Shown: piece after piece, positions 1,008 to 4,052 of the stretch
Layout: each line of letters begins with the position of its first letter
Numbering within the stretch: position 1 is the first letter of the stretch
DNA from: a virus
Lineage: Duplodnaviria > Heunggongvirae > Uroviricota > Caudoviricetes
DNA: 4,229 nt
Virus record (IMG/VR): IMGVR_UViG_2713896898_000007
Reading direction: 5' to 3' (one strand)
Notes under the pieces: generated by a model
What the model was told of the DNA's origin: nothing
What the model saw: the letters and a program-made list of their open reading frames with translations, nothing else
Database searches by the model: none
Position numbers and translations under genes: made by a program

Positions 1008-1039
1008 CCAGGAAAAAACAAAACCCGCCGAAGCGGGTT
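1008..1039 (-). terminator. Rho-independent terminator downstream of hok
   Basis: Minus-strand sequence reads AACCCGC-TTCG-GCGGGTT followed by TTTTGTTTTTT: a 7-bp GC-rich stem with a UUCG tetraloop and a U-tract, about 70 nt after the hok stop codon. Confidence 0.7.
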
Positions 1040-1107
1040 AAGTGCGGGTGCGTTGAGGATGCCTGACACATCAGAGGTGGCGAGGGATTTCTCCCCCGCC
1101 TGGTCTC

Positions 1108-1466: not shown

Positions 1467-1915
1467 TATGAAATCAGTCAGAAAGGCGATCCATAAGAAC
1501 AACAGCAAGGCAATAAATTGCCATTACAGCAGCAATAGCCAGCGCACATTTGAGAACCAGCACCACAACCTCCTGTATTGGACGTACACCAGTCCTGATA
1601 AATATGAGGCTGTCTCGTCAGTGATTCAATACAACTATTGGGTATAGTTTCTGTGATTTTGTTCTGTAGAAATGGAACATAATAACCAGTCACCACCAGC
1701 ACTTCTTTAAATACGCCAAGTCCGACGCAAGCTAACCTTCTAGCCCACTTTGAGCGAGAAGCAGACATTTACTTAACTGGATAGCAAGAGACTTCATATA
1801 TCATGGTTGATCCCGGAGTTTTCAATAATGGAAAGACATTGCCCGTATGATCGGGCCGTAACCACATTAGAAGCAGGTGCCCTTTGTGAATTTTGATTGT
1901 GTCAACCTATCTGTT

Positions 1916-2056
1916 TTGAATTTTTTATAAAAAATATTCGCAAATTTGTGAATTATGAGAGACAAACGAGCATGGACAACCAATGTTACTTTCATACACA
2001 ATGAAGCAACATGATAAAAGTACACTGACTTTAGCAAGTAAATTTAGGAGATTGCG
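1916..2056 (+). promoter_or_regulatory. AT-rich upstream region of the 444-aa ORF with its ribosome-binding site (AGGAG at 2046..2050)
   Basis: AGGAG lies 6 nt upstream of ATG 2057. The region 1916..2040 is about 30% GC with A/T tracts (TTTTTTATAAAAAATATT at 1921..1938) and several weak -10-like hexamers (TATAAA 1926..1931; TG-n-TAAAAG at 2012..2020). No convincing -35/-10 pair, so the promoter position is unresolved. Confidence 0.3.
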
Positions 2057-3391
2057 ATGTTTAGCTTAATCATGGCCGGAGAACCGGACGTTTTTGACCG
2101 CTGGCCGTGTATGGACCCTGGGCTTAAAGAAGGCGAGGAAAGATTCTCGATGTCCCGCATGCTGGAAGGCACCCCAAGCGATATTTACAGTAAATTAACA
2201 CCAATAAGACCCGATACCTTAAGAGAACTCGCCAAGCTACCAGTATTGTTCATGACCGAAACTTATACAAAAGATGATGAATATGATACAAACAAGTACA
2301 TCAGGATCAGACTTGGGGAAATAAGAAATTTACGTAAAGATGGTGGCGATATTTTATTTTCTTTCAAGATTAATCATAATTTTGGAGAAATAACGAATCC
2401 CCAAACGACATTATATAAAGAAACCCTAGGGCTAGGATCTTTCGGGTTAAGTCGTACACATTGGGCAGTAAAAAATAAGGATTTAAATATTGTTCTGGAA
2501 TCACTTGGTTTAAACAAACAAAATAGTCACCTGAAAGGTACAATCAAATTAAAAAAACAAACATACCCAGTAGTCGAGAACATTATAGATTATCTTAATT
2601 TCATAAAGAAAAACTTTCGTGATGGTCTCATTACCTTTTATCGTGGACACTCTAAAAGCTCATATGAGCTTGTCCCCTCTCTTTACAGAAAAAATCAAAA
2701 CGGGACGTACAGGCATCTTGCTTCAGAATCTGATTTAGTACGTGAAATACTCAGCGCAAGACCAAATGAATTTAAGGAGGATAAATTTACGATTGATAAA
2801 CTTGTCCGCATGCAGCATTATGGCTTGCCTACAAGACTCTTAGATATTACATCTAACCCACTGATAGCATTATATTTTGCTTGCTGTTCGAACCCCGATG
2901 AAAACGGACAGGTGATTTCGTTTTCAACAAATAGAAAGAAAATTAAATATTTCGACTCAGATACAGTGAGCTGTATAGCAAACTTATCACTTTTATCTTA
3001 CGAAGAGTTGGAAAAATTGTCCTCCTCTGATTCCAGAAAAGGTAATATGGAGTTATCTGAACTCACTGATAAACTTGCAGACCTTATACAGAATGAAAAA
3101 TCATATTTCAGAAACAGAATAATTCCTGATGACTTAAGGAAAGTTGTTTTCCTTAAGGCTAAAATAAATAATGAACGCATACAATCTCAGGCAGGAGCTT
3201 TTCTTCTGTTCGGACTTGATCCCATTTTACCGGAAACAGATGCTGAGTTTCCTCTTAACAGAGTGGAGATAGCGAACAAAAATAAAATTCTGGAAGAGCT
3301 GGCGCAGCTTAATATATCCGAAAGCACTGTATATCCCAGCATGGAGAAAACGGCAGCAGAAATTACAAAAAAGTTTTTATCGGTATCATAA
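2057..3391 (+). CDS. FRG-domain-containing protein (444 aa) with unassigned N- and C-terminal regions; candidate horizontally acquired defense or abortive-infection gene
   Basis: An uninterrupted 1335-nt ORF in about 32% GC DNA is itself strong coding evidence, since stop codons are frequent by chance at this composition. SD AGGAG precedes ATG 2057. The translation contains FYRGHSKSSYELVPSLYR (aa 194-211, nt 2636..2689) and QHYGLPTRLLDITSNPLIALYFAC (aa 253-276, nt 2813..2884), which I recognise as the FRG-domain motifs (Pfam PF08867, a family of unknown function). The flanking ~190 and ~150 residues were not recognised. The start is ambiguous: in-frame ATG at 2150 is also possible. Confidence 0.85.
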   Translation: MFSLIMAGEPDVFDRWPCMDPGLKEGEERFSMSRMLEGTPSDIYSKLTPIRPDTLRELAKLPVLFMTETYTKDDEYDTNKYIRIRLGEIRNLRKDGGDILFSFKINHNFGEITNPQTTLYKETLGLGSFGLSRTHWAVKNKDLNIVLESLGLNKQNSHLKGTIKLKKQTYPVVENIIDYLNFIKKNFRDGLITFYRGHSKSSYELVPSLYRKNQNGTYRHLASESDLVREILSARPNEFKEDKFTIDKLVRMQHYGLPTRLLDITSNPLIALYFACCSNPDENGQVISFSTNRKKIKYFDSDTVSCIANLSLLSYEELEKLSSSDSRKGNMELSELTDKLADLIQNEKSYFRNRIIPDDLRKVVFLKAKINNERIQSQAGAFLLFGLDPILPETDAEFPLNRVEIANKNKILEELAQLNISESTVYPSMEKTAAEITKKFLSVS

Positions 3392-3418
3392 AGGGATAAA
3401 CTAAAGGCAACGAAAACT

Positions 3419-3434
3419 AAGACTGCGCAGTCTT
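3419..3434. repeat. Perfect 16-bp palindrome AAGACTGCGCAGTCTT in the convergent intergenic region
   Basis: Read directly from the sequence, 28 nt after the stop of the 444-aa ORF. There is no T-tract on the plus strand and only a weak one (AGTTTTCGTT) on the minus strand, so it is a poor intrinsic terminator and might instead be a protein-binding site. Confidence 0.5.
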
Positions 3435-3448
3435 CAGGTGGAAGTGCT

Positions 3449-3490
3449 CACTGGGAACGGTTTCAGGGGCAAAAACTGGAAGTTCCAGTG
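3449..3490. repeat. Inverted-repeat cluster: CACTGGGAAC (3449..3458) pairing with GTTCCAGTG (3482..3490), including the perfect palindrome ACTGGAA-G-TTCCAGT (3475..3489)
   Basis: Read directly from the sequence. The ACTGG(G)AAC core occurs three times, twice direct and once inverted. It could be a long-loop hairpin or an operator-like site. Confidence 0.5.
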
Positions 3491-3629
3491 GGCCTTGAGC
3501 TGCTCCCTATAAATTAACATATCTCAATGTTATCAATATCTGCTTTTGGCACAAAGCGGACAACCACGCTAGCTCTACCCTGTGCCACAAAATGTCAATT
3601 TACATCTGAACTAATGCACTTTAATCTCG

Positions 3630-4052
3630 TCACTTCAATAAATACCGAACATCCCCCTGATAAAACGACAATATGCGCTGCATAACTTCGCTTTTACGAC
3701 ACTCAGTACAAATCATATTATGACGCCTGTCGTAACGACGTATTTCTCCATCAGGTAATGACCAGATAAGGTCCGGATCAACCGCAGATGGTTTCTTCAG
3801 CTTTGCCCTTGAGAGCTTTTTACGGGCATTTTGCCAGTCCTTACGCGCCTGTTCAGACGGGAATAACCCGTAACCAGAGTTGCATACATCGCCACTGGCA
3901 ACCAGCTCTCTGGCCAGAACGCTCATCAGATATCTTGTTGCCCCAGTTTTAGCTTCCAGTTGTCGTAACGTCTCGCGCCCACTCTGGCGTACGAGTTCAA
4001 CAACCTGCCCTTTAATTTTTTCCCGCTCTTCTTGTGTAAAAACTTTTGCCAC
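3630..4052 (-). CDS. Hypothetical prophage protein (140 aa), with a helical, possibly DNA-binding N-terminus and a single C-x2-C near the C-terminus
   Basis: Track ORF MAKVFTQEEREKIKGQVVELVRQSGRETLRQLEAKTGATRYLMSVLARELV...MICTECRKSE...GDVRYLLK. Start is GTG 4052..4050 with AGGAGG four nt upstream; stop is TGA 3632..3630. GC content matches the backbone. The overlapping plus ORF 3880..4089 is judged a shadow. No family recognised. Confidence 0.7.
   Translation of the reverse strand: MAKVFTQEEREKIKGQVVELVRQSGRETLRQLEAKTGATRYLMSVLARELVASGDVCNSGYGLFPSEQARKDWQNARKKLSRAKLKKPSAVDPDLIWSLPDGEIRRYDRRHNMICTECRKSEVMQRILSFYQGDVRYLLK

Follow-up and report, generated by a model that had tools for sequence, protein, structure and literature searches.

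An FRG-domain gene on a mobile prophage cassette, a candidate single-protein anti-phage sensor-effector

Introduction

FRG proteins are widespread in prophages, plasmids and defence islands, and they are flagged by PADLOC as well as by DefensePredictor (supplementary tables of PMC13092281). The catalogue entries that describe them, the PADLOC candidate PDC-S15, the Pfam family PF08867 and phrog_4962, are without demonstrated function, and both PDC-S15 and Pfam FRG omit the N-terminal domain that is considered here. By sequence analysis, Aravind and colleagues placed Frg as a clade in the ADP-ribosyltransferase (ART) superfamily and predicted it to be a NADase or effector in prokaryotic immunity (PMC9503650), and a survey of Legionella ARTs gives the same assignment (bioRxiv 10.1101/2024.07.30.605764). 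Here we analyse the FRG gene of a 4,229-nucleotide stretch of Caudoviricetes DNA (IMG/VR record IMGVR_UViG_2713896898_000007), which is called the window throughout. This gene resembles the catalogued entries in its direct model matches, in consisting of a single gene and in being borne on mobile elements. It is an ordinary member of a catalogued, uncharacterised candidate family, and a defence prediction for it is no surprise to a specialist. A first-pass annotation of the window, made from the sequence alone, had described FRG as having no established function; this holds for experiments, but not for the published sequence analysis that places FRG in the ART superfamily.

With slightly more confidence than doubt, we read the gene as a one-protein anti-phage system of the abortive-infection or exclusion type, a sensor-effector that would be expressed by the lysogen and carried as a swappable moron. 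Two aspects of it are worth following, the ART-like effector and the shared, predicted PUA-like N-terminal domain.

Results

The open reading frame is a genuine gene with an FRG core

The gene and its parts are listed below, in positions of the window and amino acids (aa) of the protein.

2057..3391, plus strand: FRG-domain open reading frame (ORF), 444 aa, ATG start; PADLOC PDC-S15, phrog_4962; RefSeq name "FRG domain-containing protein"
2046..2050, plus strand: Shine-Dalgarno AGGAG, 6 nt before the ATG, read from the sequence
2057..2506, plus strand: N-terminal domain (N-domain), aa 1-150, a beta-barrel with a predicted PUA-like (EVE/YTH/ASCH-like) fold
2507..2551, plus strand: low-confidence linker, aa 151-165; pLDDT 62 and then 48 in 10-residue blocks of the N-domain model
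2552..3376, plus strand: complete FRG module, ART-superfamily-like, aa 166-440, delimited by the PADLOC FRG-family models
2633..2902, plus strand: Pfam FRG (PF08867) segment, aa 193-282

The first-pass annotation had claimed a lone 444-aa ORF with an FRG core, and this was confirmed: it is the only gene on its cassette, and its core is assigned to PF08867 at E=2.5e-22, by a match that takes in aa 193-282 and profile positions 3-92 of 94 and scores 80 bits, above the cut-off of 25; a match at about aa 185-300 had been expected. All peptide motifs that had been quoted are present in the translation. The phrog_4962 family matches aa 1-440, and 14 PADLOC PDC-S15 models match the protein, the best of them over aa 166-440 with E=3.5e-99 and 330 bits; an NCBIfam search of the protein gave no match. 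The ATG start is backed by the N-terminus MFNLIMGGEP, which is kept in 62 homologues. These homologues come from Enterobacterales, Aeromonas, Rhizobiales and Sphingomonas and align end to end at 41-88% identity. Four further copies, in three E. coli genomes and in phage Tritos, are intact (three distinct alleles). Comparison of the window with these four copies, and of the copies with each other, showed mostly synonymous changes and a ratio of nonsynonymous to synonymous substitution rates (dN/dS) of 0.16-0.37; by part, dN/dS was 0.26 for the N-domain and 0.20 for the FRG part. Since the alleles are intact and dN/dS is in this range, the ORF is a genuine gene that is maintained under purifying selection.

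The N-domain is a mobile module

A search with an N-domain profile retrieved 825 cluster representatives at E<=1e-3, many of which are not FRG proteins. Partners in this representative library include the CAP12/Pycsar-type TIR domain PF10137, in proteins of about 300 aa that correspond to the PADLOC candidate PDC-S35, a combination of AbiJ_NTD3, N-domain and TIR, a CHAT protease, a KAP NTPase and PD-T4-6/Stk2-like kinases, one of which also carries EAD2 and FGE-sulfatase domains. The domain is thus mobile and common to TIR, kinase, CHAT and NTPase proteins, in support of the earlier suggestion of a separate N-terminal sensing module. Its partners were counted at 80 species-level genome loci, with Pfam partners taken at E<=0.001:

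FRG partner: 33 of 80 loci
PF10137 TIR partner: 19 of 80 loci
TIR_2 partner (one also matches SEFIR): 5 of 80 loci
kinase partner: 1 of 80 loci
CHAT partner: 1 of 80 loci
McrB-like AAA_5 partner: 1 of 80 loci
HTH partner: 1 of 80 loci
N-domain-only proteins of 191 aa, in mitis-group and related oral streptococci: 12 of 80 loci
other, no Pfam partner: 7 of 80 loci

As far as sequence profiles can tell, the N-domain is a mobile module that partners mainly NAD+-consuming effectors, a feature that is new here. FRG and TIR NADases alternate behind the same N-domain, and equivalent effector roles can therefore be argued. This alternation is the best indirect argument that FRG is an NAD+-directed effector and that the N-domain is the sensing or regulatory half of the protein. 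A description of the shared PUA-like N-domain was not found in the literature searched, and in the EVE survey of Bell et al. 2020 both FRG and TIR fusions go unmentioned.

One architecture bears on how the effector might be switched on. A 760-aa ORF (P0193; L093 6001-8283), flanked by transposases, joins a complete cyclase of the type found in cyclic-oligonucleotide-based anti-phage signalling systems (CBASS; E=1e-112) to the N-domain and the full FRG module. This fusion, and the fact that the main TIR partner PF10137 is the CAP12/Pycsar effector TIR, would fit an orphan second-messenger effector, in which the N-domain binds a cyclic or linear nucleotide from a host CBASS/Pycsar-type cyclase or from infection and so activates FRG. 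We consider this decidedly unlikely. The window encodes no CBASS or Pycsar cyclase, the fused protein is known from one metagenome contig, and when the ORFs around the 80 N-domain genes were searched by phmmer with the P0193 cyclase domain, a cyclase-like ORF appeared at just one locus (L028), although the sensitivity of phmmer is limited for such a diverse family. The apparent CBASS link at L028 was rejected, as the genes there form a separate, divergently oriented type II CBASS (SMODS, ThiF-like and peptidase-like) beyond a LysR remnant.

Two further observations concern N-domain proteins that lack FRG. The 191-aa streptococcal proteins consist of the N-domain and about 50 additional N-terminal residues and were found in S. 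mitis, S. cristatus, S. parasanguinis, S. infantis and S. pseudopneumoniae (loci L048, L067, L075, L076, L078, L079, L081, L082, L086 and L088); at L086, a separate FRG-like ORF lies 6 kb off. In Corallococcus interemptor (L056 7929-11368), a 733-aa protein of N-domain and McrB-like AAA_5 is followed by an overlapping 413-aa ORF. The two may be a McrBC-like pair with the N-domain as reader; the identification of the second ORF as McrC was rejected, since it has no Pfam match.

The N-domain has a predicted PUA-like fold

Modelled alone with 31 homologues, the N-domain gave a confident beta-barrel with helices (pLDDT 89, pTM 0.86). Its structural neighbours are the modified-base readers of modification-dependent endonucleases, with modest scores. 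McrB N-terminal domains, DrmA and Lon-N rank next, and the PD-T4-3 5-hydroxymethylcytosine (5hmC) reader, SauUSI and LpnPI lower still. The model points to a PUA-like fold of the type that reads modified bases. A Pfam search with aa 1-168 returned no match even at E<=10, hence none to the EVE, YTH or ASCH profiles, and because the structural scores are modest and come with no sequence-profile support, we do not file the domain as a member of these families. Residues R34, E37, T39 and E68 and the RTHWAxK strand (R133, T134, H135, W136, K139) are invariant or nearly so, even across architectures. Conservation of such polar and aromatic residues in otherwise different proteins suggests that they form a ligand site. 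After the domain, aa 150-175 are without regular secondary structure, and the alignment columns there are variable in length.

The same structural neighbours would also fit an alternative that resembles type IV restriction. Here, the N-domain would dock on modified phage DNA or RNA, and FRG would ADP-ribosylate that nucleic acid in a DarT-like manner, so that replication or translation is blocked with no global depletion of NAD+. ARTs that modify DNA or RNA are established, DarT being one example (cited in PMC13092281), and the N-domain also precedes the McrB-like AAA_5 of L056. On the other hand, apart from FRG, the N-domain is most often joined to TIR NADases and kinases rather than to nucleases, no EVE/YTH sequence signature or aromatic cage was verified, and the ORF after the AAA_5 protein of L056 gave no McrC Pfam match. 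We regard this alternative as unlikely. As to type IV restriction proper, neither the FRG protein nor its cassette contains a nuclease or GTPase domain.

The FRG module extends to the C-terminal end

The first-pass annotation had set the C-terminal ~150 aa apart as an unassigned region, which turned out to be wrong: the PADLOC models span aa 166-440, and two motifs past the Pfam segment, (N/D)xRIxSQSGxF and GIxxSx(I/V)YPxxE, are kept in distant FRG proteins. Judged from these alignments, the C-terminal part is the second half of a conserved FRG module, which is new here; in a Pfam search, isolated aa 292-444 gave noise only. Residues conserved in the module are R196-G197-H198, S208, Q253-H254-Y255, P258-T259-R260-L261-L262-D263, T265, N267, R374, Q378 and G380. 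The (F/Y)RG motif corresponds to F194-Y195-R196-G197, and its R196 and G197 are invariant in the 62 homologues and occur also in distant FRG proteins. The distant alignment comprised FRG proteins of a Klebsiella plasmid, a Lactococcus plasmid, phage TP901-1 (ORF54/55) and a P2-like phage, and N267 and Q378 are the sole columns that are invariant throughout. Elsewhere, FRG proteins begin with a different N-terminus or lack one: that of the Klebsiella plasmid (296 aa) is FRG only, that of Lactococcus has 567 aa, and TP901-1 has the module divided between ORF54 and ORF55. In this Lactococcus phage (L012 3058-4119), the split module is part of the moron region that separates the lysin from a Fic-family gene.

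The full AlphaFold2 model (pLDDT 84.8, pTM 0.84) has a helical insert at about aa 302-361 inside the FRG module. With aa 166-440 as query, a weak but recurrent structural similarity to ARTs was observed, which was absent with the N-domain alone; with the full model, Foldseek retrieved no significant match from the PDB. The structural comparison is thus weak, but consistent with the ART assignment of FRG. By secondary-structure order only, the first strand (191-198) contains R196 of FYRG, and T265, S266 and N267 of DITSNP follow the second strand (261-265). From this order we infer that the DITSNP turn may resemble the S-T-S turn of R-S-E ARTs.

The gene is carried by a swappable cassette of a lambdoid prophage

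The cassette and the backbone features on its two sides are:

about 1751..3552, no strand assigned: AT-rich single-gene cargo cassette, 37% GC, delimited by comparison with L002, L004 and L005
1108..1431, minus strand: hokD (1108-1263) with the hok/sok RNA element (1261-1431); backbone, outside the cassette
3630..4052, minus strand: DUF977/Ren-like gene, phrog_142; downstream backbone, convergent with the FRG gene

The window comes from a Qin-like, lambdoid prophage of E. coli or E. albertii, with near-identical relatives in E. coli prophages and phage Tritos. These relatives, a Pfam HOK_GEF match (E=1.2e-23) and an Rfam sok match at 1261-1431 on the minus strand (E=9e-24) confirm the hok neighbour in prophage DNA that had been proposed. 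On the minus strand, the 5' part of DUF968/ydfU, a small phage ORF and hokD with sok/hok are followed, past the FRG gene, by the DUF977/Ren-like gene, which precedes the replication and immunity genes of the prophage. The FRG gene is the sole plus-strand gene in the window. It had been called convergent with the backbone genes; this is correct for DUF977 downstream, but from hokD it is divergent. The gene is read against the direction of the early-operon backbone of the phage and comes with an upstream region of its own. Such an orientation and a separate upstream region are typical of lysogen-expressed morons.

Backbone homology ends at 1757-1769 and restarts at about 3531-3547 (3539) in prophages with other cargo (L004, L005), and the stretch 1751-3552 has a 93% identical copy in E. 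coli at a place unrelated to this one, in an e14-like prophage remnant next to paoABCD (L002). From these junctions and this copy, a mobile unit of 1.8 kb is delimited, consisting of the gene with ~300 bp upstream and ~160 bp downstream, in support of the earlier view of a foreign single-gene cargo. The GC contrast on which that view had been based is real, but the values given for it (about 32% against flanks of 50-60%) were not; we find 36.9% for the ORF, 37.4% for the cassette, 55% for the left flank and 47% for the right. Among E. coli genomes, the left backbone is common to ~1800 and the right to ~1270, while the intervening stretch is present in only 28. In other prophages, the same slot holds a 1210-aa YobI-family P-loop NTPase (L005 5472-9104) or a 333-aa protein that faintly matches GNAT (L004 5441-6442). 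The slot between the backbone halves behaves as a cargo hotspot. At the L002 locus, the cassette lies next to genes for an AAA_15/AAA_21 ATPase and a DGQHR protein and to one with an HNH endonuclease annotation.

Several side observations were made on the cassette and its surroundings. Precisely at the junctions lie the imperfect inverted 12-mers GCGAGAAGCAGA (1754-1765) and TCTGCTTTTGGC (3539-3550), which are complementary at 10 of 12 positions; as 91 of 2000 local shuffles were equally good, these repeats are weak and only suggestive of a recombination site. The first 48 codons (2057-2200), which specify the strand and loop conserved at the start of the N-domain, have 49% GC compared to 34-37% over the remaining ORF. 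In the AT-rich region 5' of the gene, a direct repeat of TTTGTGAATTTTGA (1883-1896) and TTTGTGAATTATGA (1945-1958), 62 bp apart, could be an operator or chance. One promoter-like match was noted in the same region:

1973..2002, plus strand: weak sigma-70-like match TGGACA-18-CACAAT, upstream of the FRG gene, candidate only

It is kept as a candidate only because such matches are no commoner in the region than in shuffled sequence. Past the stop codon, the RNA folds with only mild stability (z = -2.4). In the backbone, about 330 bp between hok/sok and the cassette (1432-1770) are kept in ~1800 E. coli genomes; they contain only short, implausible ORFs and carry no annotated feature in nearly all sampled records (one hypothetical protein). 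Just 3' of hokD, 1018-1099 (minus strand) gave a sub-threshold Rfam match to the prophage small RNA IsrK (27 bits against a gathering cut-off of 50, E=0.005). A second variable slot between hokD and ydfU holds ImmA/IrrE-HTH and 204-aa proteins in E. coli LF82 (L003 3121-4877) and in Tritos (L007), and these are absent from the prophage of the window.

Homologues reside on prophages, viral contigs and plasmids

The FRG gene was found in 41 of 5426 complete E. coli genomes, always as one chromosomal copy; strain LF82 and phage Tritos carry the gene as well. A protein 100% identical to that of the window is encoded on a 6.8-kb IMG/VR viral contig (L094, IMGVR_UViG_2713896909_000010), from which the window may derive. 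Relatives are encoded on 92 IMG/VR viral contigs, and among the best 80 of these 92, about 43 span nearly the whole protein. One homologue with 44% identity occupies the tin/old position of a P2-like phage, after gene A at its right end, and another lies near the end of E. coli phage PhiR11_1. Homologues with 47% identity occur on many large conjugative plasmids, including IncHI2, and in 218 plasmid records the match extends over at least 80% of the protein. The first-pass annotation had suggested a check of mobile or defence-type contexts against housekeeping operons. The prophages, the P2 tin/old slot, the conjugative plasmids and the adjoining candidate defence genes support the former, and since the homologues sit on prophages, plasmids and viral contigs, housekeeping operons are not their setting.

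A Pfam census that took in two neighbours on each side of 33 N-domain-FRG genes revealed no recurrent family among them; the neighbours include integrases, transposases, kinases, HNH proteins, a C5 methylase, MobA and an AbiJ-like protein. On the basis of this census, and because the cassette has no second supported ORF, a conserved partner gene or antitoxin was rejected. Likewise, the adjacent, co-transcribed antitoxin of a type II toxin-antitoxin system was found neither among the ORFs of the cassette nor among the neighbours of the homologues. In a plasmid-borne clade (L014-L016, L018 and the IncHI2 plasmid L009), a conserved 267-aa gene with a weak TPR match precedes the FRG gene with a 14-bp gap, and at most of these loci conserved 148-aa and 268-aa genes follow it; in this clade only, the gene may be part of an operon.

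Such carriage, exclusively on prophages and plasmids, would also fit a gene that has no part in defence. It could act as a counter-defence or fitness factor, for example by degrading NAD+-derived immune signals, or as a self-contained toxin of the addiction kind, by which the prophage or plasmid would be stabilised. In line with this, the gene adjoins the hok/sok addiction module, and phages use ART and NAD+-processing domains as well (PMC9503650). However, NADase-active ARTs are reported to be under-represented in phage genomes compared to prokaryotic immune systems (PMC9503650), neither the cassette nor the neighbourhood of the homologues offers an antitoxin-like partner, and both the orientation against the lytic operon and the use of slots known for lysogen-expressed defence genes (P2 tin/old) fit defence better. 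It seems very unlikely that the gene serves such a role.

Discussion

If the abortive-infection reading is right, the FRG effector would be kept inactive in the uninfected lysogen. On superinfection, the N-domain (aa 1-150) would bind an infection cue, most likely a nucleic acid or nucleotide ligand such as modified phage DNA or RNA. This kind of ligand is the most plausible because of the fold of the N-domain and its conserved Arg, His, Lys and Trp residues. Binding of the cue might then release or assemble the FRG domain (aa 166-440), a presumably divergent enzyme of the ADP-ribosyltransferase fold, which would hydrolyse NAD+ or ADP-ribosylate a target, and phage replication would be halted at the cell's expense.

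Several results weigh against this proposal. Profile searches of PDB sequences gave no relevant match for the N-domain, which has no sequence link to EVE, YTH or ASCH, and none that links the FRG family to any solved ART. An obvious catalytic Glu of ARTs is missing; by secondary-structure order only, the slot before strand 381-385 is taken by the invariant Q378, followed by G380. The scan of the region for promoters and terminators performed no better than on shuffled sequence, with none significant. The ligand proposed for the N-domain is putative, and a search of the literature found FRG and PDC-S15 proteins in no experiment. The published tests of PDC systems in S. thermophilus did not include PDC-S15, and a paper on prophage defence that came up in this search (GiPD474) concerns an ATPase and is unrelated.

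A broader idea is that the N-domain is a previously unnamed PUA-like reader of a hypermodified phage nucleic acid or nucleotide cue, and that it acts as a universal switch for FRG, TIR, kinase, CHAT and McrB-like effectors. We consider this doubtful. If such a PUA-like reader does exist, its fusion to FRG would be the first case of modification- or nucleic-acid-sensing immunity that acts via an ART-fold enzyme, which consumes NAD+ or ADP-ribosylates, and not via a nuclease.

The E. coli allele makes the family directly testable, since it is compact and self-contained, with 1.8 kb including its own upstream region. Should it act as proposed, the ART-like FRG domain would join TIR and SIR2 as a validated immune effector, and there would be a handle on a sensor domain that apparently controls several effector classes. 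If there is no phenotype, the commonly reported annotation as "candidate defence" would need to be downgraded.

Among systems that are better understood, the single-protein abortive-infection systems that deplete NAD+ (TIR proteins, PDC-S35 and the SIR2-type DSR) share with the FRG protein the combination of a sensor and an NAD+-targeting effector in one polypeptide. PDC-S35 (~300 aa) even has the same N-domain, fused to a CAP12/Pycsar-type TIR. The TIR and SIR2 systems differ in their effector, which here is the ART-like FRG, whose NADase activity is a prediction only. In its predicted fold, the N-domain is closest to the readers of the PUA superfamily (EVE-HNH VcaM4I, McrB N-domains and PD-T4-3), with which the protein shares the layout of an N-terminal reader and a C-terminal catalytic domain. 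To ART-fold enzymes such as DarT, RES toxins, TNT/Tse6-type NADases and TreX, the structural similarity of aa 166-440 is weak but recurrent, and a first-strand Arg (FYRG) and a Thr/Ser-rich turn after the second strand (DITSNP) may correspond. In contrast to these enzymes, the FRG protein shows no detectable sequence similarity to solved ARTs and seems to have the invariant Q378 at the position where Glu is expected, and its cassette carries no antitoxin or immunity gene.

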